From Psilocybe cubensis (lineage: Eukaryota): a DNA stretch of 64,000 bases. The notes below the pieces were generated by a model, which ran no database searches, had not been told where the DNA came from, and worked only from the letters and a program-made list of their open reading frames with translations. Made by a program: the position numbers and the translations under genes. Positions 5,640 through 64,000 of the stretch are shown here, in pieces. Numbering within the stretch: position 1 is the stretch's first letter; each line of letters opens with the position of its first letter. The stretch covers positions 1,116,001 through 1,180,000 of the forward strand of contig CM039009.1 of assembly GCA_017499595.2 (NCBI GenBank). The letters are read 5' to 3'.

Positions 5640-7808
5640 TCAATAATCATCAAAATCCTGCGGCTGTCCAACATACAAATCCTTCGTCTGCGCAAACAGA
5701 GCCATGCGCCTCCTTGCTTCCCAGGCGTCTGCCTTCAAAACATACCTATCGTAGTCTCTCAACTCATCTTTCTTTTTCCCCTTATGCATATCCTCCGCCT
5801 CACCGTCCTCTTGCCCCGAGTTCTCCAGCCAGTCATAATCATGCCCAAACTCATTCCACACATACGCTGCCTCACCCACCCGGACGTGCGACTCAGTATC
5901 GAGGTAGACAGCGTGCAGCGGAACACAAGCACCGCCTGCCCCCCGTGTGAGCGCTAGCAGCCGCTTGCGCGCGGCACTGTGCTTCGACCTCCATTTCTTC
6001 CGTTTTTGCTTCTTCAAGTAGGATTGATACTGCTCCCCACAGGACGCACGAGCGGCATCTTCAAATCCAAACCCGCGCAGCACCTGCACATCCCGGATCG
6101 CCTGTGCATATCGCCCATCGACGGCTGTCAAAGACAAAGTGAGCATGTTCGGGAAGAGTGTCCTCCTTCTCGCTACTCGCTCTCCGTCGTTGGCGTTGGA
6201 GCCAGCGACTGGATTGGCGGGGTTGTGAGTTGTAGCGCCAGTATCGCTATCACTGTCGATGTCATGTGCACTATCGGCGTTGAGTTTCGAGTCCCCGTTT
6301 GCAGCGTGCCGTACATGAGCATCGTTCGCCCCCTCGTCGTCGCTATCCCTGTCACATTCATTATCCCATTCTGCAAATTCCTCAGATGATCCCCCACCAC
6401 CATCAACCTCCAGCCCATCTTCCAAATCAGCCGCGCCCAGGCCGCCCGCAAAAAGCATCTTGAACGGGGACAGGTAAATATTCGCGAGAATCAAATGCTC
6501 GACGAACGGGAAGCACGCAGATGCGAGGGTTAGCGCATCGACAGCTTCAGGGTGTGCAGGAGCAAGTGTGAGCGTCCTCAGGTTTGGAAATTTGAGCTTC
6601 GAACGGACGTCGCTGGGTAATACGATTGCGTCCGGGGTAGCATTCTGGTCGTTCGCATCCCAACCAGGCTGCACGACGTTCATCAACAGGTTGAGATCGC
6701 TCGGCACAATCGGGGCGATCACAACTTCCTTCAAGTTCGGTGCGTCAAGGAATAACAGAAGCTCTGACACTGAGAGCATGTTTCCAAGTATCATCACTAC
6801 TTCTAACGAGGGTACGGGGCATGAGAAGAATGAAGAATATCCTGGAAATGAGCGCAGGACCTCGTCATACACCGCCAGGGTATGTAAAGCCGGACAGGAA
6901 GAGAGAACAGCAGATAGTGAGGAAAAGGCGGTGAAATCGTACGAGGAAGAGGATGATGATCGGGACAGGTGAAGGGATGTGAGTGATTGTGCATTGGAAG
7001 GAAGTGAGAAGCGGCTGATCCCAACCCCGACCATCCGCAACTGCTTTAGACGTGGCGCAGAACGGAAGAGGCTTAAAGGTGAAGACATAAGGTCGTCGTA
7101 GTGCGACAGATCCGCTTCAAAGATAAATGTTTCCAGGAGCGGCATATCTGTGTCAAGAAACTTCGAAATAAAGCTAAAAGAGATAGAAGAAGTGGGTTTT
7201 GCAAATACGCCGCGCAGCTGCAATGAGCGACATCGTGATAGATGCGGCCCCAGCAACTCAAAAAGAGGCTTGTATTCTTTCCATTTGGGAGTTTCATGCG
7301 CTTCCTGATCCATTTTCTGGCTGCTTGTGCTGCTATCATTGCTCCTGCGATTTCTCTTGTTGTATGCAGAGCATGTTGTATAGTCCGCGTGTCCAAAGAT
7401 TCTGAGATCCAGCGGCACCTGGGAACTCCGCTCGATTTGAACTTTCACCCTCTGGAGACCCTTCTGCAGATTCCGATTCCACATAGGGGGAACGAGCGAT
7501 ATTGTGTCGTGCCAGAGGGGGTTTCCAAGGACCACAGCGCGCCAGAGCGCACACACTGATGAAAGAGAAGCGGTGAGCCGCGCAGCAAGGAAGACGCTAT
7601 CGTCATCGGGCCCACAAGCGAAAGCATCTGACGAGTACGCTGATGTGAGAGTGAAGTCGAGAATAAGAGTGAGCAGCTCTGCAGAGAGGAGAGATATGGG
7701 GCTCGACTCTGATACGACAGGCGTCAGGGGTGGGCTAGATGGTCTTGAGGTCGCGCTTATCATCGAGATTGTGGTCATGACCAAGTTGGTATCACAAACA
7801 GAAGGCAT
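5640..7808 (-). CDS. F-box-like / degenerate LRR protein, single exon, with an acidic low-complexity insert and a basic patch
   Basis: 722-aa ORF; PISLLSAELLTLIL...LSSVCALWRAVVLGNPLW is a basidiomycete F-box-like motif, followed by LxxLxL repeats (PHLSRCRSLQL, PRLKQLRM, PNLRTLTL); KKQKRKKWRSK is NLS-like. Confidence 0.8.
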   Translation of the reverse strand: MPSVCDTNLVMTTISMISATSRPSSPPLTPVVSESSPISLLSAELLTLILDFTLTSAYSSDAFACGPDDDSVFLAARLTASLSSVCALWRAVVLGNPLWHDTISLVPPMWNRNLQKGLQRVKVQIERSSQVPLDLRIFGHADYTTCSAYNKRNRRSNDSSTSSQKMDQEAHETPKWKEYKPLFELLGPHLSRCRSLQLRGVFAKPTSSISFSFISKFLDTDMPLLETFIFEADLSHYDDLMSSPLSLFRSAPRLKQLRMVGVGISRFSLPSNAQSLTSLHLSRSSSSSSYDFTAFSSLSAVLSSCPALHTLAVYDEVLRSFPGYSSFFSCPVPSLEVVMILGNMLSVSELLLFLDAPNLKEVVIAPIVPSDLNLLMNVVQPGWDANDQNATPDAIVLPSDVRSKLKFPNLRTLTLAPAHPEAVDALTLASACFPFVEHLILANIYLSPFKMLFAGGLGAADLEDGLEVDGGGGSSEEFAEWDNECDRDSDDEGANDAHVRHAANGDSKLNADSAHDIDSDSDTGATTHNPANPVAGSNANDGERVARRRTLFPNMLTLSLTAVDGRYAQAIRDVQVLRGFGFEDAARASCGEQYQSYLKKQKRKKWRSKHSAARKRLLALTRGAGGACVPLHAVYLDTESHVRVGEAAYVWNEFGHDYDWLENSGQEDGEAEDMHKGKKKDELRDYDRYVLKADAWEARRRMALFAQTKDLYVGQPQDFDDY

Positions 7809-8190
7809 CGTGAAAGTAACATCATTAACGCGACAAAGACGTGATTACCGTTGCTCTCTTATCTAGAAAAGGCAGGTACCTCGTGATGTGTTGTTGATCG
7901 GCGGAGTGCGAAAAAAGAAAGAGAGATTGAGCGGAGCTCGAAATACTGGTACATAGTTAACGCCATTGCCTTGAGCTTCTTGCCACGCCGAGTCACCGCT
8001 GGTTCAAGACGTTGTCTTCGACTGTGTAGTAAAGTTCTCTGTTTACAGTGAGTTACACCGCTACTCTCCCTCGATTAGATATATTAATCGTAAAATCTTG
8101 CTGTTACTAGATCAACGAAGTTGGATTAAAAATTAACCAAAGCTCAAACTGTTAATCCCATCTCACCGAGTTCATCGATCGGAGGACTAC

Positions 8191-26681: not shown

Positions 26682-27979
26682 ATGACCTGCCAGTGTCCCA
26701 TCTGCTTTGAAGAGATCTCCGACGGTGCCCATTCTCTGCCCTGCGGTGAGTTTTGCTACTTTCTCAATCTCTGATGAAGCTGATTCAGCCAATTGATTAT
26801 CAGGCCACATTTTTTGTACTGGCTGCGTTGAAAGCCTTGCAGGTAGCGCAAGAACAAGAAGCGGCCAGGTCAGCTGTCCATCATGCCGCCGTCTATACGT
26901 TCCTAGTAAGTGTGAAAGCCATCCTATCGAAAGCCTCTACGCTTGGTTTTGGATCTCATCGATCAAAACAGGAATGTCTGCGGAGGTGGTTCGAAGGGTC
27001 TTCTTGAATAGCAACAACCCGTCCGATTCTTCTAACACCGTACATTCTGATACCTCATCGACGTCTAGACCGATTGTTGCTAATGACGCAGAGGTTACCC
27101 TACTTCGTGAGCAATTAAACACTGCACAGAGGCAGAGGGCGGAAGCGGCTGCCGAAACCAACAGATTAAATGACGTCCTTGCAACAACCAGAAGGGAATC
27201 AATGTCAAAGTCGAACGAAATCAACAGTTTGAAACAGCAACTGCGAGATAATGCTTATGCTTTAGAACAATCCCTGAACAGTCACACTTCCTACAGAGCA
27301 TCTGCACAAGGAATCTTTGAGAGTTTTCAAAACGAAAATAACAGACTGAAAAACGAAATAATGGAATTAAAAGCCGAGCTTCGTGTCGCAAACTCCCAGT
27401 ATGTGTTGTCATTAATATCCAGCTTAGCATTAGTTGATCATCTATCTTTGTCTTCAGTATCCAGGCTAGTCGGGGAAGGTCAGTGCAATTTCTTTACATG
27501 GGTCTCTTATATACTGGCACTAATTTTGGAGGAACTTCCCGTGCGTCTCAAGGGATCCAGCAGCGTCTACCGCTGCACAATCTACCCTTGGTTCTTCGTC
27601 ATCCAGTATACCTGATGAGCCTCCTTCGGCTCGTGTCCAATCTCAGCAAACTGCCAGAATACCGAGTGCCCTCAATGGACGCGTCATTAGAACCGGCAAC
27701 ATATCCAACACTAATACCTCCTTGTTAGCGCCAGCTGTTTCCCCAGTTTCTACAGTGCCCCATCCCGCTCCTGCACAAGCACAAGCTCCAAGGCCACGCG
27801 CGCTGAAGCGTGGGGCAGATATATTGTGCAGAGGCTACAGACGTCCACAACAGACAGCCGTACCAGAATGTACTTCAGCAGACGGATATCACAATTTTAG
27901 TGGCAAAGGAAGCAATCAGTACGCAGCAAAGTATACCTGCACGGAATGCCATTTTAGATGCTCCGAAAGCAGGCGGTGA
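26682..27979 (+). CDS. RING-A: RING-HC (C3HC4) + coiled coil + C-terminal C-x6-H-x15-C-x2-C module; putative E3 ligase
   Basis: Spliced MTCQCPICFEEISDGAHSLPCG|HIFCTGCVESLAGSARTRSGQVSCPSCRRLYVP|..VRRVFL, coiled coil, Ser/Pro linker, ECTSADGYHNFSGKGSNQYAAKYTCTECHFRCSESRR*. Confidence 0.85.
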
Positions 27980-28661
27980 CAAATGTCTGTTCAAACCCTA
28001 TGTTGCAGAGCGTCCATCAACAATTTTGATAATTGGCTTTTGTAGTCATTTACACCCATATGTATTTTTTATTAGTCTGTAACTATATCCCTTGTTATGT
28101 ACGGTGTATGTTTCAACTTTTCATTACGACGCTCAAGGTCGATGACATATACGCTGAATTTTGACGTAACCATTCAGATACACAATAGTAACTTTTTTAT
28201 TGTTCAAAGCAGTGGATAATCAAGATTTTGATCAAAGAAAAGCCTACATTGCCTGAGCTTGTAGGCACCTCAGACAGGACCTGAGCACTCGATTTAAAAC
28301 TCGGACTACGGGTCGCGTCTGGTCGCGTCTTGATTTAAAGTCGCGTCGCTAACTGGTCTAATTAAAGTGACTCCATAAAAATAGATAACGCGGTAGGAGC
28401 TCGAACTGTGCATGAACTGTGCTAAGCCATTATGTGCCGTAGGGTTGGGATGTCGGGGAGAATCTTTCTCTTAATGCCTAGTACTTGCTTCGGAGATGTT
28501 TATGACTCGGCGGCGACTCAGAGTGGTCAGGAAACCAACACGTGCCTTGTCATTAGGACAAAGGCGGAGTCCACAGCGGCTGCTTCCATCCTTTTTCTTT
28601 CAGACCACCACCAGCTATTAATCCAACCCAGCAGTTACATATCCTGATAAAGCCTCAAGAG

Positions 28662-30103
28662 ATGACTCAGGGTATATTGTGCTCTGTCTGCTCGGAAAGC
28701 AATGTACATTCCACCCTGCCGTGCGGTAAGCGCTTTCTGGTGGTCTGATTAATAGTTTATTATTCCGATAAACTGATCAAGCTCTTTCACAATTAGGACA
28801 TAGTTTGTGTACTAACGGACACTTATCCTGTGCCTGGTGTCAACAACGGTGTACACCCAGTAAGTCGGAATGCACTTCATTCGATTCGGTGACTCTATCA
28901 CTAGTACCCCGGATCTTATCAATTTCTACAGAAAACACTGTGGATACGGATAAGAAGATCGCTTTGAGCAGTAAAGATAGTAGCACATCCCTTGTCTCTA
29001 AAGCTTTCGCTCTTAGGCCGGTTGCTACACAATATGCGGAAATTGCCCTTCTTCGTCAGCACTTGAAAATTTTACAGCAACAAAGAGACGAGGCTATTCA
29101 AGAGGCCAATATACTAAAAGATGTCCAACGCTCCTACCTGCGGTCTGTTGAAGCAGCGAGAGGGGAATCCATCCTAAAATCTCAAGAAAATGAACTCTTG
29201 ATCGAGAAATTGCGCAAGATGACAAGTGCTTTACAGCAAACACACGAAGAACTGGATGCGCACATCTCTTACCGGACATCTGCACAAGAAATGATTAAGA
29301 ACATTAGTAAAGATAACGCGAAATTGAAGCACGAAGTAACCGATTTGAAAGCTCAACTTCATGTATTGTCGACTCAGAATAGCAAGGGCGACCAGCTGCC
29401 TTCAGTCAAGACGGTGCTCCAGGATACTTCCAAAGCTATTTTCCGGTATAGTGCATGTTCTATTTCTTTAATATCAATCTCGCTAATCATTTTCGTAGAT
29501 TTGAGACTCAAGTTCAGGGTAATAATATTGCACATAAAGTATGGTTGTAACTGGAATGCATTCATTTCGCACACTCTGATATGTATACCTTGATTGTAGA
29601 CCAATTTTCCTTTGTTCGGAAAGAGTTCCACCACATCCTCGTGCAATGATACCACCCCGAGTCCTTCTGCGTCCAATATAAAAGAAGAACCGGCATCAGT
29701 TTATTTGCAATCTCGGCAGGTAGCCAGACTACCAGCCACCCGCCTTGACCGCGTCCGTAAATTGGTCAACACGGAGACAAGTAAACCAATTGTCCCGCAG
29801 CAGGACGGAGCTGCTTCTCCTCCAGCTCCTGCAGCTGCTGATGTTACTTCTTCGACCGCAATTAATCCTGCTCCCACTTTGTCTCGTGCCCCGATGAAAA
29901 AGAAACCCACTCTCAAAACTGGCAACGATATATTATGGCGAGGATACGGGTGTCCAAAGAATACTCCTGTTCCAGAATGCACGTCAGCGGATGGATATCA
30001 TATATTCAATGGCAAGGGTACTAATCGGTATGCGACCAAATACAACTGCGCGGTATGCCACTTCAGCTGCTCAGAGAGCAGACCCCGCTATTACCTAGAC
30101 TGA
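28662..30103 (+). CDS. RING-B: tandem paralog of RING-A with a shortened RING, coiled coil and the same C-terminal module
   Basis: MTQGILCSVCSESNVHSTLPCG|HSLCTNGHLSCAWCQQRCTP|...HISYRTSAQEMI (cf. RING-A HTSYRASAQGIF)...ECTSADGYHIFNGKGTNRYATKYNCAVCHFSCSESRP. Splicing at 29446-29599 is uncertain. Confidence 0.75.
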
Positions 30104-30666
30104 TTATGGGTACTAGTAGCCCAATGCATTGTAAGTAGCTCCAAATCTTGTATACCATGTACTATTAGGAGTTTTCTTCTCTCTTTACTTGTATATTATG
30201 ACTCTACAATACTATGTGACCTGCGCTTATGAACATATGCATCTCAAATCAGTGCTTACTTACAAGTGTTGCCCCTGTTCTAAAAATAGAGTAACATTTA
30301 CTCTTTGTCACATCATGTCACCATCACGCTTTCAAGCCGTTTTCCAGTTTTCAAACTTATTACACTCCTTGACCAGGACGATCCCCACCATTTTCCAAGC
30401 TCTCTGCCCACAAATTGTCACTTACGATGTGGTCAGATTATTAGCCTATGCTTTTGACGACTCAGACCAGCATCGATTCAAATATGTTCCCGCCTTTGGA
30501 AGTCATTGGCTGATCCAACTTACAGCGCAGCAACAGCGGCAAGACGTGGTCGTGGTAAACTTACTGTCAGGAATGACTGTTGAACACAGGTATATGGACG
30601 TTGCCCATTTAAATTCCTCGCCAGATTGTTGCTATCTAGGAAACGTTTCTTGTTCTCTGTTGTCGG

Positions 30667-32444
30667 ATGGAACGAGATACTGGGACCACCGTGCCTGCTG
30701 TGACGGGGAACGACATTCCTGACGAAGTATGGCGAATCATTGCGCAGTTGGTGTCCTCCTCCACCAGCTCAATGACACGATATATGGCTATAAACCGTAC
30801 CTTTTTCAACTATGCACTGAGCCAACGTTACCGTGAAGTACAATGGGTTGTTTTGGACCAGGCCCTAGTGAAGCAGCTTGACCGTTTGCAGTGAGTCTCA
30901 GCCTAATCACTTGTTGCAGGCAAAGCATACTGTCTCAGCGTCTCATGATATCCAATTTCCCAGGTCTCCGCTCATCGCACAGCATGTCCGCACCCTTCAC
31001 ATCCGTGCTTGGTTCATTGAATACCTTCTTCGACGCGCAGTCTTGTACAACCCATCATCCTCTTTTCGCAAAGCGAAAACTGCGCTCAAAAAATTCCTTT
31101 TACCCATTTCTTCCAAGTTCGGTGCTGTACATTTCCTCCATATTCGTCCTTCCAGGCCGCCGTGGATACTTCAACACGAACAAGAACGAGCTAAAGATGG
31201 CATGCTTTCCTTTGAAGTAGTAATTAGGTCAATGATTCAGGCCATCGCGGGGATGACGAACGTAGTAGAATTCAACTTCGAGTGGCGGGATCTTCCTGTC
31301 AACAGGGACACGCTGATGTTTTTGATATTGACGAGGACGGCCTTTGATAGAAGCTTGCGTAAGCTCAACCTGCGCGCGCCGATAGCGAAATTCAAGGAGC
31401 TTCTGCCTAATGCTAACTTTGACAACATTGAGGATCTCACTCTCCACTTTGACTACAGGACAAGTGATCAGCCTTCTAAAACGTTGGCAGATCTCGATGC
31501 GCAACAACTGCTGGACACCGTCGTTCCATTTATTGCCCAGCGCCGCTCTTCACTGCAATCTCTTACCATCTCTTCCTCAGCTTTAACTGACCTTTCATCC
31601 TTCTTCTCTGCTTTTCCCACTGATTTTATCTCTTTGAGGGAGTTCAGCTTTGATATTTCATTCCACAGCGATTTGCTTTCGGATTTGAATGGAATCATCA
31701 AATTCCTGGAATCCTGTCGGTTTTCTCTAAGACATGTTTCACTGGCGGCTAATTGGGAGCATCAACACGTAGGATTGCTTTCATATGCACAGGCTTTTGA
31801 CGACACGAATGGAAACCTTGTGGATAATGGCAGTCATAGTGGTGATGTGGACACTAGGAACCACAACCCATGGATCCGGATGAATAACCTTCTGCTCGTC
31901 CATTCTACCTGCCTTTCCAATCTCCACAATCTCGCAATCCCCTTCATATCCCTCTCCAACACCTTACCTCTTGTCCGCAGGTCGTGTGACACGTTGACAC
32001 ACCTATGTTTGACCGGGCGGTTTCTCACTCTGGATGAGGTTGAAGGAGTTGCTGGATTGTTCAGCCACCGTTCGCTGGAAATTACACGCCTGCAGATCAT
32101 GGTAGGATGTTTCGACAGGAGGGTGCTGGCAACGCTGGCGAAGGGCATGCCAGACTTAGGGGCCCTTGTGATGGCATTTGAGAATATGGGTGACGTGAGT
32201 TTTTTTGGCTTCATGTAGCTTCCGTCTTTGATCCTTTATTGACTCCATCATTTATTATTTCTTTTTCTTCCTTATCATGAAGTTGACTTACGAGACTCGT
32301 GAGGCCGCCCTTGATGAGTGGAGGTTATCCTTCATCAAGGTATATGATCGACATCTCAGACGAGTATACAGCGAGACTATTAGGAAGCGAGGCGCAGGAA
32401 CTTCACTGCTCCATCGTCTGCAAAGGGAAATGATTTACTATTAA
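30667..32444 (+). CDS. F-box-like + LRR-like protein (3 exons)
   Basis: IPDEVWRIIAQ...MAINRTFFNYALSQRYREV (F-box-like) spliced to SPLIAQHVRTLHIR...LRKLNLR...LQSLTI...LTHLCLTGRFLT; last exon LTYETRE...IYY*. Confidence 0.8.
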
Positions 32445-32933
32445 TCCGGCCTTGGATGTTCTGGAAAGTGGAGTAGCGCGATAGAACATTTTTTTTGTTC
32501 AGCTTGGACAAAGCTTGGATCCCTTTCTGCTTCGCTTCGGGTACAAAGGGCAACATAATTAAACGTGTGCAGTTTACACTTTAAATTCAGAAAAGCCCTG
32601 TCCGTCAAGCAACGCTCTTTGTGACTTCCTGAAGGGTAACCCCACACAATAGCGACACTTACGAGAATACGCGTATTCAATCAATTTCGATGACATTTTT
32701 TGCAATTGTTCGTGTGATCTCGGATTCTTTTGTAGCTTCCGCCTCGAGGACGACTACAGGTTACAATGCTTACTGCCAAGGAGTTAGAACAAAGGCAAAA
32801 GCATAAAGGTTGGGATTTAACGAACCTCGTCATTCAATATTTCCATCATTGCACTCCCTGTGCCATCCTCGCCGAAGTAGTTTGCCACTGTAAACCTCTA
32901 GTCCGATCTCTTCAACCCACCTTCATTGTCGCG

Positions 32934-33663
32934 ATGACTAGTAATCCCATCTGCGAGGTATGCATTGAGAATCTCGGCAGCTCACCGTACAGTCTGGAAT
33001 GTGGTGAGCATCGATGTTAATCTAATATCTGGTAGACATCTGTTAACCATTTGGCTATTATACAGGCCATCTTTTATGCACTGCTTGCGTTGATAGGGTC
33101 TTACCAGACCAGCAGACTATCTTCCTAAAGGTCCCTTGCCCAAATGCAACTTGTATTGAGAACGTTCTCTTCAGTTTGTACCCATCGTCAATTTAAAAAA
33201 AAAGCTAGACTGATTGCATTTTCAACATTTAGAAAGGTCGTCGGCGCATATTAGGACAATATACATGACCCTAGACGAGCCAACTACCGAAACTCCATCG
33301 AGAGGACGATCAGGCAGAACGTCGTCCGGGGCCCGGTCAACCTCCCGCCCTCCCATGATTACTCGATCCAAACAAAGGGAAATCAACCAACAGAAATTAG
33401 TCGCAGACACCCTTGCAGCGGCAAACCTCCAGGTAGAGGAAGCGACGGGCAAGATGGAGGATCTGCAACATAAATTGCAGATCACACAGGAACGTCTGGA
33501 GTCGGCTGCTAGAAAGACACATGAATTGGAGAAAAAAGTTGTGTTGGAAAGCGCGGAGGCAAGTCGAAAGACGGTGCAGTATGTATTTTGCGCCATTGCA
33601 TTCACAGCTCTTATTGCATTAATGTTTTACTATTACTTTGGTATACTTGGTTCACAGAATTGA
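32934..33663 (+). CDS. RING-C: RING-HC + coiled coil + C-terminal transmembrane anchor
   Basis: MTSNPICEVCIENLGSSPYSLECG|HLLCTACVDRVLP...VPCPNATC...|..AHIRTIYM, coiled coil, then YVFCAIAFTALIALMFYYYFGILGSQN*. Confidence 0.8.
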
Positions 33664-34803
33664 TTGGGATTTCAGATACTTTATTACTTGGCCGCCTATT
33701 ATTTAGATATGTATTAATACTCAGCACTGCATGGAATAATGTGTACATATTCTTGTTGACATCATCAAACTCTCCGATGTGGGGTGCGACGGTAACTAAG
33801 CTAGTAAACCAATCTTTTCTTTTTGTGCGCACTTGGTATCTACAAGACGCTCATCAGTCTTGTAGATATGGCGATGCCAGTAGTAAGTGAATATACATAG
33901 ACTGTGGAGCCGCCATCGGGGCCACACCGGGAAAAGGGAGTTTCAGTGAGGACGTTCGATATTCAAGCTTTATTGTAATGCGGATTTCTGCGCTGCAACC
34001 CTGCACGTCCGACTTGTACTTTTTGAAACTCGGAACCGAACAAAACAAACATATCAAGCTAACGGAGCTAAATGACCGCCAATTCTGATGTGCAGAACAA
34101 AAATTGAAAGACAGTTTTATTGAGTCCTAAGTTACATGTACTACAATTACGGTCTACATGGCGATTAGAATTTGCAGAGTTTTTGTTAGATAGACTCTGT
34201 TATACACTAAGTAGCCGCGGACAATTAATTGCCAAGAAAATGAGAGGAAAAGCGGGCGTTTATAGGTCGAGATAGAAAAATTGGATTCTTGCAGAACATT
34301 CCCCTCTATCAGGACCTTCACACTTAACCTCCGAGTCCCATCTGCACTACTACAGTCGCCGTCATCATCAACGTATACTAACTATAATGTCGTGCACGGT
34401 TGGACGGTCAACAAGACTTGCTTACACTATGGTCTCCGGTCCGCCAAAGTGCGCGATTTGCTTTTATAAACTCGGCGAAACGGCTTCCAGCTTAGAGTTA
34501 AGGCTCCAATCGTTTAGTTTGTTTATCGTTTACAAACTGTTTATTCCATTTACCGTTTAGTTTATTTTGTACTTCATGCCAAACAGTATACAAACCGTTT
34601 ACAAACAGTTTACACGGTCCCTATTCCAGGATTGATCTGAGCAACTCAATTGTCCAATAAGCATTAGTAAAACACAATTTCCAATGTTGCGGGACAGCGG
34701 TTACTGTAAGAACCGGAGAAAATTCACTGAAATGTGATTTCTGAGAGTTGGCAACGTTGCAGGCTGCAAGAGTAAGCCAGAAAATTCTACCACATACATT
34801 GAC

Positions 34804-37800
34804 ATGTCAGCACTTCCGCCTGGCAATCGTGTTACGCATTTGCACATTCAGAAAGTTGTCAAATCCTTGACTCTTCTCTCGTCGTCGCTTCCGGACAATA
34901 TACCAGTGGCTACACGGCACGATAAAATCTATACTGCAATACCTACTGCTCCTATCGAAAGTCAGGGTTCAGCCATCTTTGAGACATTTAATCGTGTCAC
35001 GGACATTCTATTTAAAGAAGATGCAGACTGTCGAGATGAGCACGGTCACTTTCGTTATATCCGTCGTGGAAAGCTTGGAATGGAAAATTTCTGTGTGTAT
35101 ATAGGCAAAATAAACTGGGAAGTCTCCGACATTCCCCTTGACCTTGTTGGGATGAAGCTGGAACGGATACTTGATGAGCTCAAATATCTTACGTGCGTAA
35201 CTAATATCTACATTTATATTCAATCTAATATGTACTTACTATTGGTTAGAAAACTTCCTCCTAAGAAAACAGGAGTCTATAACAATGCAAAGACAAAGCC
35301 GGTACCAAAAACCAAAAAGAAGGCAAAAAAAATGAGTGGAATAACTCAGGATCTAATCAATGGTGCTGTACGTGACCTTCAGAGCCTTCCTAGCAAAGGT
35401 AATGTCACATTAAACTCACGTCTAGCCCTGAATAAAAGATCTAAATACCTTGTATTAGATGGAGAGTGTACCGACATCAATTCTGAGGATGACGCTACAT
35501 TTAAACCACGCCGAAATATGGAGCGTGAGTCATCCGAAGATTCAATTTTGTCATATACCCTCGATAAGGACGGGCTTGAAGTTGATGATAGCAAGAATGA
35601 CCCAAAAAAGCGCCAGCAAGTAGTATCTGATACAGAAAGTGAAGGAGAACAGGTTAACAAGGTAAGACATTGAAATATAAGAAGTATAAGTTAACTTACT
35701 ATTGAATATTTACTGTAATAGGGCCCGTCGTACAAAAAAGCAAAGAAATCAGCAAGCGCAGCCAAATCTGCAAAGATTAAGGTCATTGATGTTGACGACG
35801 TACCTGAGGCATCAGAAACAGAAGTCAAATACAACAAAAAGGGCCCTGCAAACCACAGTCGAGCCCATTTTAGAAATCCGGTACCCGTTGTAGTACAAGG
35901 AGTTCATCGATGGGAGTTTTCGTGTAGGCACTGCAAAAAGTAAGTGACTTAATCAATCATAAAATTAGTTGCGTTACTCAGCTCTGCATAAAAATTAGGT
36001 CAGTAACGGTTCCACGGACTGTGGATAAAGAAAAGAGTTTCGACGATGAGCATCCAAAGCCAGCACTCGGAAATTTAGCAACTCACCTTAAAAAACATTC
36101 TAACCTTGACCTAACTGTACCACCTGTCGCTCCTAATGGTTCCGGCGAGCTTCGGGGAATTTCCGCAGCCTCAGCAAAAGTTATGGAGGACTATCTCAAG
36201 GACGGCGAGATTAATCCGGCTCTGGCACGAACACAGAAAGGTTTTTTTAGCGTGTTCGCAGCATGGATTCTAGAGGACGACTTACCCTTTACAACTGGTG
36301 AAACATCTGGCATTGGTCGCCTTTTCAAATACATGGAGAGCCGATACATGCTACCATCAGACACAACTGTTCGCAACTATCTTGCAAAGATTTTTTGTGA
36401 GATGAATAGAGTTGTGAAAGGCGAGTTAGAGGTACGTACATTATACTCAATACCCAATATGTGGACTAACATATTGTATTCTGTAGAGCGTCAAATCAAA
36501 AATTGCAGTCTCGACGGATGCCTGGACTACAAAATCAATGATTTTTACATTTGCGGGAACCATTGCCACCTGGGTATCGGATGACTGGGAGCTGGTAGAA
36601 CGGGTAATCGACTTTTATACAATTGTTGACAAGGAGCATGAAGGTGAGTATGCTGCCAAAGGGATGGCAAAAGCTTTGTCGGACATGGGTGTTTTAGAAA
36701 AGATGAGCCAGTTTTCATTGTGCGATGCTTACTAGATCACGATTACTTACCTAATTTAATACCTCTTAGCAGTAACCTGCGATAATGCGGCAACCAACGA
36801 TGTTCTTCTGCAAACACTATCTCGTCTTCTAATCAACAAGTTTGACATACAATTTATTCCTGAAAATGCGCAGATTCGCTGCCTTGCACACGTCATCAAT
36901 CTTGTAGTGCAAAAAATTCTTGCCACTCTTGGTGAGGCCGAACATCCTGAAAATAATGACTATTACGAAACAATGAAAGATCTGCCGGTACACTACGATG
37001 CCGACAACGATACAGCTGTTCAGGAAATGGAGCGCGAAGCTGGTGAAGGGGAAAATGGAGATGAATGCACCGCCTTTATGGTGTCTGCTGAAGACAAGGA
37101 AGATCATATACTTTTGGCCGGCTCTATGCCAGCCCTCAGCCCTCTTTTGAAGGTAGATTCTTGCATGCTGGCTGGAGCTTTCTACTTAATTGATTCAATT
37201 TTATTTTAGCTTCGCACAACCGTATCAAAGATTTTATCATCTCCTCAACGGCGTGCACAGTTTCATAAAATTGCATCAACAATGTATAGGGACGAGGTAA
37301 AACCATCTTCTAAAATTGATACCCCTTCATCAACTACAGCAGAACCGGCACCCAAAGTATTGATTGCCCATTTGCTACCTATCCGGGATGTTCGAACACG
37401 GTGGAACTATACACACGCAATGATAAAGCGGGCTCTAATGCTTAGAAATGTTTGATTTTCTTCACGTTTTGCATCTGATAAGATTGTACTGACTTTGAAT
37501 TTACTATAGGCAATTAACGGATGGGCATCGCTACATGGGTTTAGTAGCCTTGTGCTTGACCGAGAAAGCTGGTCTTATCTCGAGAAGCTTGAAACTATTC
37601 TGGAACCCTTTGCTCAGATTACACTCCAGATGTCGCATTCCAACACTCCAACATTACCCTGGGTCCTTCCAATGTATGATTTCATGGATAAACATCTCTC
37701 AAAAGCTGCGAGCGACATGAACTTGCTTCCATCACTTCAAGAAGCAGCGGCCGCAGGACTTCAAAAGCTGTACAAGTATCATGGGAAAGCTCAAAACTGT

Positions 37801-38481
37801 CATTACAACATTATTGCCACGAGTACGTTCTTAAACTATTTTGCTATTGCCACAAATGTGTCTAATCATAACTAGTGCTACATCCATTCCTTGGAATCAG
37901 ATTTTTTCGTCTAGTTGATGCTTCTGGTGACCGAGCTGCTAAAGCTCAGACCATTTTCAAGCATGCATTTGATCGTTACAAGGCTACATTTGAAAATTCT
38001 CCGAAGTCAGCAGTGCCACTTACTCGACAAAGCTCAGCCTCCTCAAGTTTTCTTGATGAAATTGCCTTCTTCGAAGACAATGCAGTAAATGAAGAGGCAA
38101 TTTCTCCCACCACAGACGAACGCGAGCATTTTCTTCAAGCTCGACAAATATTTGGTTGTGGAGAACCAAACAAACCTTTATTATGGTGGAAAGTAAGCAA
38201 TTTCGTCACTTATTAATTGTTTGGAATACTTTACTAACCATTGAGAATTGATAATTCTACAGAACTACGGGCACAACTTCCCGGTCATTAGTAGAATGGC
38301 CAAAGACTTTCTGGCTATTCCAGGAACAAGTGTCTCGGTGGAGAGACTTTTTTCAAAGTCACGTCATCTGTGTGCTGACCTCCGGTCCTCTTTGAAAGCT
38401 CAAACTATCACTGAGTCTTTGCTCTCAAAGATGTGGATTAGAGCCGGTATTTTTGACCGTGTCTTGCGACAACTTGCGTAG
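34804..38481 (+). CDS. hAT transposase (BED zinc finger, DDE core, C-terminal dimerisation domain), multi-exon
   Basis: FSCRHCKK...GNLATHLKKH (BED); STDAWTT; VTCDNAATND; IRCLAHVINL (CxxH); RDVRTRWNYT; PLLWWK...LAIPGTSVSVERLFS. No stops after manual splicing. Confidence 0.92.
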
Positions 38482-38490
38482 TCTACTGTC

Positions 38491-38828
38491 CTTTATTTGC
38501 TATAAAAATATACTCTCAATACCAATTCAGATGCCGCGTGACTGGCTGTGACATCCTGTACCGTTTACAAACATTTGTAAACGGTTTGTAAACAGTTTCC
38601 TACCCTTTCCGTTTATTTTATAATATTTTTTAAACGGAAACTAAATGGTTGGAGCCTTACTTTATTTGCTATAAAAATATACTCTCAATACCAATTCAGA
38701 TGCCGCGTGACTGGCTGTGACATCCTGTACCGTTTACAAACATTTGTAAACGGTTTGTAAACAGTTTCCTACCCTTTCCGTTTATTTTATAATATTTTTT
38801 AAACGGAAACTAAATGGTTGGAGCCTTA
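38491..38828 (+). repeat. Perfect 169-bp tandem duplication of the hAT right terminus (two right TIRs)
   Basis: 38491-38659 and 38660-38828 read identically from CTTTATTTGCTATAAAAAT to TGGTTGGAGCCTTA. Confidence 0.93.
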
Positions 38829-40301
38829 CTTAGAGTGTGGTCAGTCCCGAGTCTAGCATCGTCTACTCACAAATATATACATAGACAGTGATGCATTATG
38901 TATTATATATTATAACCCATGTGCAGAACCACTGATTGCTTTATACTCAGGCCATATCTTTTGCACACCGTGCACAAACAAATTAATGGCAGCGACGTCG
39001 AGCGCTTTGATGAGCTGCCCAACATGTAGGAAGCGCGTCGAAAAAGGTGCGCACCCATAGCAGCTTAGCTTTTCTAAGATGCTGGGCAGCTAATGATTAA
39101 AAAAATTGACAGAGAATACCAGGAAGGTATACATCCCTCACGGCCCATCGAATAACATCCCTCGGACTCGAAGCGCCGCGCCGCCTCTGGCGCCTGCAAC
39201 CACGATGGAGAACCTGCTCAACGATACAATCAAAGAAGCAAGTGAGCAGGTCGAGAACCTGCGCACCGAAAACACGCGGCTGGAAAGCGCGCTCAAAGGC
39301 GCCTTTGCGCAGAACAATGCACTGCAAGACGCCGTGCAGATCGCTACAACGAAGCTGCGCGACGGCGCACGACGGCTGGATACGGAGACACGCGCGTCAC
39401 TCGAGGCGCGCGGGAAGGAAGGGGAGGCCAGGGCGCACGCGCGGAGGCTGGGGATGTGGGTGCATAGGCTGGTGGTCATGTTGTGCGTGCTGTTACTGCT
39501 TCTCCTTTTCTTCGGGGCGGTGATGGCCCGGTTCGCAAAGGTCACTTCGAAAGTGACCGGCGCGACTGTTTGGCAGTCCCATAAGCGCGCGATTTGGGAG
39601 ACTTTGAAGAGCTTGTTCCGGCTTTGAAAACTTGAAATTTTGAATTTGGATTTCAAGGATTTGACCGCTGATTTTACTTTTGTTTGGACTTTGTGTGCGA
39701 CCTCGTTCCCTTGATCATTCTACTGTTGGGAATTCCTAAAGACGATTGTCATGTTTAATTTAAAAATTCCCGATGGTTAACATTAAGACCTTAGGCCTTA
39801 GTAGGCCTTCATGCTCTACTTCTGCCTTACAACGCCATTCGCCACTCTCACTACTCACTCCGCACCAGGGTAATAACCCTGTGTTTTGTGAGCCTCGAGA
39901 AGCGTGTTTAAAGGGGTGTATCAGTGTTTGTGATATCCCATCTCGTATGATGTTATTTACAAAGACGCATTTTATTCTGTAAGGGCAGTTAGTTGAATGA
40001 AATCCTTTCAACAACTTGAAAAAAATGGTTAGAAAAAAACGGATTCAAGCCCTCTCAGGCAGCTAGTCTATGAAAATATGCTTAGTTCTGATCCTACCCG
40101 ATGGTATAGAACTGTTTGTTGTATACCAACCTCTTGAACTAACTGACAATCAAGTCTAATGAAGAAAGGTGATTCAATTGCGCATCATGATGTATATGCC
40201 ACAGAATAAGGGTCTAAAATCTATTACTTCTATCGCTCTTAATACCTCAGCTCTTGCATTTCCTCCCAAAATCACTCTTCCTCTTCTTCTACGCACTTAC
40301 G

Positions 40302-41260
40302 ATGGAGTGCATGGTCTGCTTTGAATTCTTCGGCGAGACCGCTTTCAGTTTAGAATGTGGTAAGCTCGAACTTGCCTCCGTCCCCATCCCACTTCCATCC
40401 TTATCAAATTTGTATAACCGTGAAACTGACTGCGCATTTTCACACTCTTCTTTGTGGTCGATGCCACAAAGGCCACATCCTATGTGCGCAATGCACAGAC
40501 AGACTCCGAGTCACAGCTGCTAGAGGCCCAACCAACATCGTCCTGCCGTGTCCCAGCTGCCGAGAATTAGTCTCAACAGGCAAGTCTAAGTCATTGGTCA
40601 TTGTCGTGACACAGCCGTATACGTCTTATTTACTTCAATACACTGCTTGCAGAGAAATCGCCTGCGCACATCCGCAAAGTGTACATGTCCTACATGGACC
40701 CGTACAACTTGAATACAGGCCCGACGCATACTACCCCTAGTAGTACTAGCAGTAGCACGGGGAACCGGGGCGCTTTCCGCGCGTCTGAATCCGCCAGCAC
40801 CAGTCTAAGAACCGGCGGCCCAACGAATATCCTCGCCTTCCTCGAGTCCGTCTCAGCATACTGCGCGCGCAACACCGACTTCCTCGAGTCCGTCTCAGCA
40901 TACTGCGCCCGCAACGCCGACTTCCTCCACCGGATCCACCGCATCTTCGACGCCTTCGACGCCGCCCATGCCCGCGCAGAGCGCACCGAGGCGCGCAACG
41001 CGCAGCTCGAGCACCAGCTGCTCACCGCGCAGAACACGATCGTGTTCCTGCGCCAGAACGACTTTGAGCAGCAGGGCAGGATCCAGGAGCTCGAGCGCGC
41101 GCTTGCGGAAAGGCGACGCGAGCAACGGACGGCGTGGATAGAGGACGCGGTCAGGATTGTGGGTTGGGTGTTGCTCGGGATTTATGCGCTGGCGTTTTGG
41201 ATTGACAAGGGCGCGGTGGAGGCGATTGGACATGTTTACAAGTACTTGTTTTGCCTATAA
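40302..41260 (+). CDS. RING-E: RING-HC + coiled coil + C-terminal transmembrane segment
   Basis: MECMVCFEFFGETAFSLECG|HILCAQCTDRLRV...LPCPSCRELVST|EKSPAHIRKVYM..., coiled coil, IVGWVLLGIYALAFWI (TM). Second intron is GC-AG (40580-40652). Confidence 0.85.
40837..40927 (+). repeat. 42-bp in-frame tandem duplication in RING-E
   Basis: FLESVSAYCARNTD/FLESVSAYCARNAD; period 42 nt starting at 40837 and 40879. Confidence 0.9.
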
Positions 41261-62761: not shown

Positions 62762-64000
62762 TCACAAATTATTCAACAATGTGGAGATAGCCTGTCTTGC
62801 AATGCGCTCCGAAGTGAAGTTCCGGCGATAGACTGGATCCATAGTTCGAAATCGCCCATCGTGAACCTCAATCGAAGACAAATTCCAATGGACAAGAGAG
62901 TTATCAGGCTCAGGATGTGTTAACTTTTCCAGAGAGTTGGGTTAGGCTTCTCAGATTTCAGTGGATATAAGCTCACATCATCATGGCGCTTCTCGTAAAT
63001 TAGAACGAGAGAACGCAGATCAGGAAGTCCCTTCGCCAAAACCACCAATAGCGCAATATCCAACATGGTGACAGCAATTTCAAGGTACTGAATTTCGAGT
63101 GACCGATGGCTGAACAGCGCTATAACCTGAGCTATTTCATTTGTAGTGAGGTACCGACCTTTCAGACAAAGCCGTATCAATGTGTCACATGAACGCTGGA
63201 TGATAGGTAGAGTGTTGCTCAACGAAATGAAGGGGATTTCGAGAGACCTGAGGGATGAAAGACACCTGGGATGAGCCAGTAGCAGATTATTCATGCGAAC
63301 CCAAGGTTTATTATCACTCTGGGGATTGATGTTGTTTGTATCTGTCCTTGCGTAGCGATCAACACTTTGAACAGACTGGGACTTGACAGGGTCTAGATGG
63401 TTATGCTCCCAATTGGCAGATAGAATGACTTGTCGAAGGCTGACCGCACAAGACTCCAGGATTTGGCAGAGGCCACTTGCATCCGAGAGAAAATCTTTGT
63501 GAAAAGAGATGTTAACTCCAAAGCCTCGAAGAGAGGGGAAGTAGGAGGGAAGAGCATGAAAAAATTCCGACAAATTGGTGGCAGACGATGACGACACACG
63601 TAAAGACTGGAGACGGTCTCGACGCTTTGCAATAAATGGGACTACAGTCTCCAATAATATTTTCACGTAGGGGTCCGGAGTTTCGGACACAGTACCCCCT
63701 GGACGATAGTCAAAGTGGAAGTCCAACTCCTCGATGTTATTAAAATTGGTATTTGCAAGAAGATCTTTGAATTTGGAGATCGGCGCTCGTAAAACGAGCT
63801 TGCGTAGACTGTTATCGAACGATGTTCTTGCTGATGTCAAAAATATCAACGTGTTCTTGTTCATAGGGAGATCCCGCCATTCGAAATTGAATTCCATAAC
63901 ATTTGACATTCCTGCCACGGCGTTGACCATGGGATTGATAGTTGATTCGAACGAAAGAGCGCCGTCCTTGGATCGTTCATGCCTGTGCTGAAGAACCCAC
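62762..64000 (-). CDS. F-box-like/LRR protein, paralog of 30667-32444; 5' end lies beyond the window
   Basis: AGMSNVMEFNFEWRDLPMNKNTL...SLRKLVLRAPISKFK...ANWEH...WVRMNNLLL aligns with AGMTNVVEFNFEWRDLPVNRDTL...SLRKLNLRAPIAKFK; same last-intron position. Confidence 0.85.

Follow-up and report, generated by a model that had tools for sequence, protein, structure and literature searches.

The window analysed here, 64,000 nucleotides of the Psilocybe cubensis genome (GenBank assembly GCA_017499595.2, contig CM039009.1, forward-strand positions 1,116,001 to 1,180,000), contains a cluster of genes that probably encode RING-type E3 ubiquitin ligases. With a probability of about 0.7, we consider it to be a tandem array of five old RING-HC E3-family paralogues which is lineage-specific, partly decayed and part of the RING/F-box expansion of the Agaricomycetes. 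Spliced models derived from the coordinates place five plus-strand RING genes at 26682-41260, with starts at 26682, 28662, 32934, 34429 and 40302 (g1 to g5, respectively; Table 1). To judge from the predicted proteins, the array is real and consists of five paralogues from a single family, in which the C-terminus is of two kinds. The order of elements in the family is RING, the motif phi-R-(K/R/T)-(V/I)-(F/Y), coiled coil and a C-terminal element, which is a Cys-His-Cys-Cys (C-H-CC) zinc module in g1 and g2 and one hydrophobic anchor in g3, g4 and g5.

The five predicted coding sequences are free of internal stops. Their introns are 53-112 nt long, with a G+C content of 0.30-0.46 in comparison with 0.44-0.61 in the exons. 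The sequence C-G|H is split by a phase-1 intron 1 in all five genes, and the N-terminal C3HC4 RING thus spans exons. Intron 2 of g1 to g4 is a phase-1 GT-AG intron located right after the last Cys pair, whereas in g5 phase 1 is obtained only with a GC donor at 40580 (GC-AG) and the available GT donors result in phase 0. The motif following the RING reads RRVF in g1, RTIY in g3 and RKVY in both g4 and g5, while g2 has KKIA at this position. When compared with full-length proteins that were annotated independently in other genera, the spliced models agree with them column for column at their N-termini. A regular expression for the exon-2 part of the RING, applied to the six frames of the window, gave four matches, all of them in g1, g3, g4 and g5, and tblastn with the five models produced no match with E<0.1 elsewhere in the 64-kb window. 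An earlier interpretation of this DNA, made without database searches (the sequence-only reading), had proposed a family of RING-HC and coiled-coil proteins encoded by five co-oriented genes at these starts, with a phase-1 intron inside C-G|H, a second phase-1 intron after the RING, the motif R(R/K/T)(V/I)(F/Y) in four copies and two C-H-CC ends beside three transmembrane ends. The spliced models, the module alignment and the hydropathy values bear this out, g2 being the copy without the motif; only the second intron needs a correction, as it is a phase-1 GT-AG intron in g1 to g4 and has this phase in g5 only via the GC donor.

RING-HC fingers contain eight zinc ligands with the spacing C-x2-C-x(9-39)-C-x(1-3)-H-x(2-3)-C-x2-C-x(4-48)-C-x2-C, and the residues that activate RING E3s are a hydrophobic one after the first ligand (C1), Pro after C7 and a basic 'linchpin' after C8. 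The canonical C3HC4 pattern was found in three of the five proteins, g1, g5 and g4 (the last read across a hAT element), and not in g2 and g3. The same three proteins have I or V after C1, P after C7 and R after C8; the basic residue after C8 is missing in g2 and g3. With the RING being split, the Pfam scans of the window genes were scans of separate exons, and full-RING scores come from relatives only. The exon-2 halves matched the second half of the Pfam RING models with E values of 1.5e-4 to 6e-2, which is below threshold (g1 reached 19.0 bits with zf-C3HC4, the cut-off being 21). Full-length relatives exceeded the gathering cut-offs of Pfam RING models (e.g. P0003, zf-RING_UBOX, 33.4 vs 25.2), and zf-RING_2 was detected at E<=1e-3 in 8 of the 33 scanned alignment rows. 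The search of the Protein Data Bank (PDB) with relative P0010 gave eight matches at E<=0.01: TRIM31, RNF213, TRIM56, Pex10, RNF13, TRIM32, a herpesvirus RING and Arkadia. The best PDB match for the RING of a relative was TRIM31 (E 1e-3).

The coiled coil was assessed with a home-made heptad measure, and the heptad contrast in each of the five proteins was equalled by only 0-3 of 200 shuffles. Pfam matches in the middle exons were exclusively to coiled-coil families. The hydropathy of the C-terminal anchor (KD19) was 2.05 in g3, 3.18 in g4 and 1.96 in g5, in contrast to only 0.66-0.97 in g1 and g2. Tail-anchored proteins lack a signal peptide and carry one hydrophobic stretch of about 19 residues or more close to the C-terminus, and g3, g4 and g5 agree with this description. 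The protein continues beyond the anchor for 7 residues in g3, 33 in g4 and 18 in g5; the tails of g4 and g5 exceed those of a strict tail anchor, and the membrane insertion is a prediction. The C-terminal ends of g4 (39538-39624) and g5 (41204-41257) share a motif A-I and then a final K-x-L-F-x-L, which is absent in g3.

Retention of intron 3 in g1 (27399-27615) or g2 (29446-29590) would also give a hydrophobic tail (KD19 of 1.59 and 1.99, respectively), located where g3 to g5 carry the anchor. The KD19 values of these read-through tails were matched by 14% (g1) and 7% (g2) of random open reading frames (ORFs). A retained-intron anchor of g1 and g2 was set aside as the less likely explanation, the T-rich intron sequence probably being the simplest cause.

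The zinc module of g1 and g2 comprises 55-60 aa and is 67% identical between the two proteins. An exhaustive profile search with the module yielded 34 cluster representatives with E values of 1e-3 or lower; for 24 of these the value was 1e-10 or lower. Across 33 alignment rows the residues at the Cys, His, Cys and Cys positions either do not vary or are conserved to at least 90%, which does not hold for the later His and Cys. In 29 of the 34 relatives the C-H-CC pattern ends 6-40 aa from the C-terminus. A full canonical RING is present in 8 relatives and the post-RING motif in 13; five of them (P0011, P0023, P0028, P0033 and P0036) have the motif without a complete RING. The complete relatives show the layout RING at residue 3-4, (I/V)R(K/R)(V/I)F, coil, Ser/Thr/Pro-rich linker and, as the last element, the module. 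The same architecture of RING, coil and zinc module was found again in Galerina, Gymnopilus and Flammula, and Pholiota has the module as well (the species being Galerina marginata, Gymnopilus dilepis, Flammula alnicola and Pholiota conissans). The identity of the module across genera is 60-72%, compared with about 30% for the whole proteins. When g1 exon 5 and g5 exon 3 were used to look for homologues via a word index, only self-matches of P. cubensis were returned. Three G. marginata proteins, P0010, P0020 and P0003, are encoded on one 3.63-Mb contig and two of their identifiers are two apart (235190 and 235192), a spacing which hints at a similar cluster in that species.

No Pfam family of the searched Pfam copy was assigned to the module in any alignment row or window exon. 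P0004 of F. alnicola bears the precomputed PF27241.1, which is absent from that copy, and no mention of PF27241 was found in the literature. The sequence search of the PDB gave no module relative of solved structure; the matches of the module profiles, a de novo TIM barrel and an antibody-like framework, were judged not to be real. The module of a Galerina relative had structure neighbours with TM values of only 0.45-0.54, including clusters with Zn_ribbon_InsA, and no feature matches, so that a zinc-ribbon fold is a weak lead. A resemblance to NDUFS6-type zf-CHCC fingers, suggested by the order of ligands, was reported by none of the Pfam scans.

The paralogy of the five predicted proteins is far beyond chance. 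The g1 and g2 proteins are 36% identical over their full length (blastp E 2e-68), g1 and g4 31% over 151 aa (E 2e-17), g3 and g5 43% over 72 aa (E 7e-17), g4 and g5 39% over 74 aa, and g3 and g4 26% over 176 aa. The matches of g2 to g3, g4 and g5 are weaker (E 1e-2 to 3e-4). A maximum-likelihood tree built from 25 proteins that carry the module pairs g1 with g2 as its sister (ultrafast bootstrap 99, SH-aLRT 99), with a long branch for g2 (1.27 vs 0.47). Three Galerina genes form a separate clade with those of Flammula and Gymnopilus (95/97), and the tree contains at least five deep clades. On this phylogeny of predicted proteins the duplications are lineage-specific; in this respect the birth-and-death pattern proposed earlier is supported by the g1+g2 pair and by the position of the Galerina copies in another clade. 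In the RING-region tree, which is poorly resolved overall, g3, g4 and g5 form a group (SH-aLRT 91). This grouping matches the physical order of the genes and suggests one change of the C-terminus followed by duplication, rather than the interchangeable C-terminal modules that the sequence-only reading had envisaged.

The proportion of synonymous differences (pS) between the paralogues is 0.65-1.1, i.e. saturated; the copies are therefore old and dN/dS between them is not estimable. No DNA repeat of at least 25 nt linking the copies was found. The proportion of nonsynonymous differences (pN) between g1 and g2 is 0.18 in the zinc module, compared with 0.36-0.41 in the coil and linker, and pS in the module is 0.86. 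A constraint on the putative zinc module, including that of g2, is clear from these values. Unlike a fast-evolving sensor, the predicted module is the most conserved part of the protein. The G+C content at third codon positions also divides the copies, with 0.70 in g4 and 0.73 in g5 vs 0.45-0.49 in g1, g2 and g3.

Judged by their predicted products, only g1 and g5 are genes with an intact canonical RING, because the RING of g2 is partly deleted, the Cys pair of g3 is altered and g4 is split by a hAT element. The g2 RING lacks the ligand C6 and the central loop (only a 2-residue loop is left), and its exon 2 has 63 nt in comparison with 96-108 nt in the other genes. The last Cys pair of g3 is C-x4-C. 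In g4, the insertion contains the Dimer_Tnp_hAT domain (Pfam, E 6.1e-13), and all three matches of the pattern of the terminal inverted repeats (TIRs) sit at the ends of the element. The 8-bp target-site duplication, the TIRs and the dimerisation domain, which characterize hAT elements, are thus all present. When the element is removed, the g4 frame runs straight into C-G|GT. With a perfect 8-bp duplication and the remainder of g4 intact, the insertion looks recent. The gene decay claimed in the sequence-only reading, which had noticed one shortened RING (g2), one transposon-disrupted copy (g4) and one copy with an internal duplication (the 42-bp repeat of g5), is supported by the g2 deletion, the g3 Cys pair and the g4 insertion.

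None of the four public P. cubensis gene models covering the array includes the RING exons. The exon translations are 99-100% identical to JR316_0012353 and JR316_0012356. The model P0001 (JR316_0012353), which corresponds to g1, begins past the RING and mis-splices the zinc module. P0005 (g2) skips the RING and fuses g2 with the next gene, and P0002 (JR316_0012356) joins the coil of g4 to exon 3 of g5 in one chimeric model. P0038 (UniProt A0A8H7XQY5) is a RING-less 3' part of g4 which starts inside the g4 RING and shares the intron 39047-39112 with our model. The sequences of several relatives start with the post-RING motif or slightly ahead of it, or contain only half of a RING, which suggests that the loss of 5' exons extends beyond P. 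cubensis. Gene callers systematically overlook the short exons of the split RING in these fungi, and RING ligases are therefore probably undercounted in mushroom genomes.

Several observations weigh against the interpretation as a tandem array of RING-HC ligases. Defects of the predicted RING affect three of the five copies, so that much of the array may be ligase-dead. The two types of C-terminus align weakly beyond the RING and the motif: in the comparison of the downstream exons of the anchor and module types by hhalign, only the post-RING motif aligned (21 columns, probability 59.5%, E 8.9e-5). Neither a profile search, which found nine proteins, nor a word-index search brought up an anchor-type relative beyond P. 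cubensis; this is weak evidence because the family is often mis-annotated and the word index is limited. Finally, the public models seem to come from an annotation pipeline, and that of g2 omits the RING. The P. cubensis assembly was annotated with FunAnnotate, and RNA-seq guidance is not stated in the available part of the paper (PMC8220353), for which reason the public models are no evidence of transcription.

The RING defects could also mean that the array consists mostly of relics. Save perhaps g1 and g5, the copies would then be pseudogenes or RING-dead, and g2 might be a non-catalytic partner of g1 which pairs with it via the coil. Such an array is doubtful in our opinion, although the absence of C6 and of the loop in g2, the long g2 branch, the C-x4-C of g3, the hAT-split g4 and the public g2 and g4 models that skip the RING or start downstream of it are all in its favour. 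All five coding sequences are open, the g2 module is clearly constrained and the hAT insertion looks recent, with the rest of g4 intact. A slightly better case can be made for developmental E3 ligases that tune protein turnover in the fruiting body, which we regard as a tentative possibility; it is compatible with the tandem array of old paralogues and adds a role to it. According to the available parts of the two studies, F-box, RING and BTB genes are expanded and developmentally regulated in Agaricomycetes, the F-box copies having arisen mostly via recent tandem duplication (Krizsan et al., bioRxiv 10.1101/349894), and RING-type genes are expanded in mushroom-forming fungi, where many of them are developmentally regulated (Nagy et al., PMC10282164). 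The array fits this known RING/F-box/BTB expansion, which likewise concerns lineage-specific, clustered and fast-diverging E3 specificity genes. In the accessible text of these papers RING is treated as a domain class, and the architecture of the array with its C-terminal module is not described. Nothing in the developmental argument is specific to the five array genes.

The sequence-only reading had compared the genes with animal TRIM proteins and proposed a fast-evolving locus for ubiquitin-based surveillance or defence, directed against viruses, transposons or non-self, with one arm in the cytosol and one tethered to membranes. The RING-coil-variable-end layout is reminiscent of TRIM proteins, which share with the array the N-terminal RING-HC, the coiled coil and a C-terminal element setting the location or target, and TRIM13 and TRIM59 end in a hydrophobic region like g3 to g5, as far as described in the available part of the source (PMC4021871). 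In the part of the literature at hand, however, the RING of TRIM/RBCC proteins is immediately followed by one or two B-boxes, which define the group (PMC3503706). No B-box was found in the Pfam scans of the window exons and relatives, nor is there a Cys/His cluster between the RING and the coil, and the array does not belong to the TRIM family because this defining domain is absent, although the coiled coil is present. Moreover, the g1 and g2 proteins end in a small conserved zinc module and not in PRY-SPRY or a similar domain. The lineage-specific duplications, the decay of the array, the low identity between genera (about 30%) and the confinement of the relatives so far to a few related genera would suit a defence function. 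Against it, the C-terminal module is the most conserved part and not a diversifying sensor, the paralogues are old with saturated pS, the flanking genes are of the housekeeping kind, no NLR, HET or other immune-type domain was detected among the 77 long ORFs scanned in the window, and none of the 10 papers listed for mycoviruses together with RING E3s contained the E3 term. We therefore consider the defence locus, which draws on analogy, to be improbable. If true, it would matter more, but nothing yet supports it. Still more speculative, and to be given very little weight, is a B-box-less TRIM-like system in Psilocybe and its kin in which the zinc module as the cytosolic arm and the anchored paralogues as the organelle arm would recognise a common non-self or damage signal (e.g. 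viral or transposon products) and mark it with ubiquitin; RING-dead copies such as g2 would regulate the system via coil pairing.

It is equally hard to see the genes as a diverged and multiplied offshoot of HEI10/Zip3/RNF212, an analogy that we find very unlikely. Meiotic genes of the HEI10 type typically occur in single or few copies and not in membrane-anchored arrays. The array genes differ from them in being clustered and multi-copy and in ending in a zinc module or a membrane anchor. The eight PDB matches of P0010 listed above also argue against this origin, and the comparison is one of layout. The layout itself agrees with the description of these SUMO/ubiquitin ligases acting on chromosomes, which have a RING at the N-terminus together with a conserved helix, a coiled coil and a tail that varies (PMC3405992, the available part). 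In addition, zf-RING_5 was the top Pfam match for g4 exon 3 and was also listed for Galerina relatives.

For g3, g4 and g5 the closest analogues are tail-anchored RING ligases. The RNF183 family, RMA1/RNF5 and Rines/RNF180 comprise small proteins that combine a C3HC4 RING at the N-terminus with a single membrane segment at the C-terminus, Rines having also a coiled coil, according to the accessible parts of the sources (PMC7313026; PMC4021871). These are animal proteins with no sequence relation seen past the RING, and the tails of g4 and g5 are longer. By analogy, the working mode of the array products may be most like that of B-box-less RBCC proteins, of TRIM13 and TRIM59, RMA1/RNF5, Rines or the RNF183 family in the case of g3 to g5 and, by layout, of HEI10/Zip3.

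The gene structures, the paralogy, the domain composition, the occurrence in relatives and the condition of each copy have been demonstrated by the present analysis, whereas for the E3 activity, the oligomerisation, the binding of zinc, the localisation and the role of the RING-HC paralogues we infer the following. The family would consist of small (200-385 aa) single-subunit RING-HC ligases in which the N-terminal cross-brace RING recruits E2~ubiquitin. The phi-R-(K/R)-(V/I)-(F/Y) segment together with the coiled coil of about 100 aa would mediate self-association, and a Ser/Thr/Pro-rich linker would lead to the C-terminal targeting element. The zinc module of g1 and g2 may bind a conserved partner, whereas the anchor of g3, g4 and g5 may hold the protein at an organelle membrane, the RING being exposed to the cytosol. 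One change of the C-terminus and subsequent local duplications would have produced the array, which is now partly decaying. The compact conserved zinc module marks an E3 family known so far from Psilocybe and related genera. The natural series of intact, RING-deleted and transposon-split copies with either the zinc module or the anchor is suitable for studying the exchange of targeting elements on one scaffold.

Table 1. Features of the RING gene array and its surroundings (positions in the window; TIR, terminal inverted repeat)
Feature	Position	Strand	Remarks
g1	26682..27979	+	RING-coiled coil-C-H-CC gene, 353 aa
g1 exons	26682-26745, 26804-26905, 26972-27398, 27458-27478, 27532-27979	+	last two splice sites uncertain
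g1 RING	26694-26886	+	intact canonical C3HC4 (predicted)
g1 zinc module	27797..27976	+	extreme C-terminus
g2	28662..30103	+	g1 paralogue, about 385 aa, RING degenerate
g2 exons	28662-28725, 28797-28859, 28932-29445, ~29506-29518, 29600-30103	+	fourth exon an uncertain micro-exon
g2 zinc module	29903-30100	+	
g3	32934..33663	+	RING-coil-anchor, 202 aa; exons 32934-33003, 33066-33173, 33233-33663
g3 anchor	33583-33639	+	hydrophobic, 7 aa before protein end
g4	34429..39627	+	RING-coil-anchor, 227 aa if read across the insertion; disrupted in exon 1
g4 exons	34429-34498 + 38837-38839, 38951-39046, 39113-39627	+	
g4 anchor	39469-39525	+	
hAT transposon in g4 exon 1	34499..38828	+	4,330 bp
hAT TIRs	34499-34520 and 38807-38828		22 nt, 91% match
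Second 3' TIR of hAT	38638-38659		identical to the 38807-38828 copy
Target-site duplication CTTAGAGT	34491-34498 and 38829-38836		8 bp, perfect
hAT 3'-end tandem duplication	38491-38828		perfect, 169 bp; source of the two identical 3' inverted repeats
g5	40302..41260	+	RING-coil-anchor, 257 aa; exons 40302-40359, 40472-40579, 40653-41260
g5 RING	40308-40560	+	intact, canonical (predicted)
g5 anchor	41147-41203	+	
g5 tandem repeat	40837..40927	+	42-bp unit x2.2, 95% matches; duplicates 14 aa
Interleaved gene	30667..32444 (ends approximate)	+	unrelated to the RING family; leucine-rich body by eye
F-box-like N-terminal motif of interleaved gene	30715-30753	+	pattern averages 0.1 matches in shuffles
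Paralogue of interleaved gene	62923-63999	-	56% identity over 355 aa; runs off the window end
Weak F-box/LRR (leucine-rich repeat) case	5643-7844	-	LRR_At5g56370 E 5.5e-5, F-box-like E 0.083

The gene interleaved between g2 and g3 had been described in the sequence-only reading as an F-box/LRR gene and the window as holding four F-box-like genes. Neither description could be confirmed. The interleaved gene has an F-box-like motif only, with no Pfam F-box or LRR match at E<=1, and no PDB relative of it was found; apart from its paralogue, the window contains one weak case. No match was obtained when the window was scanned for Rfam families and tRNAs. The genes flanking the array are ordinary or housekeeping ones, encoding phosphatidylserine decarboxylase, FAA hydrolase, RNase PH, DyP peroxidase and AA9, as well as a HAM1-like protein, a fungal transcription factor and a DUF455 protein.

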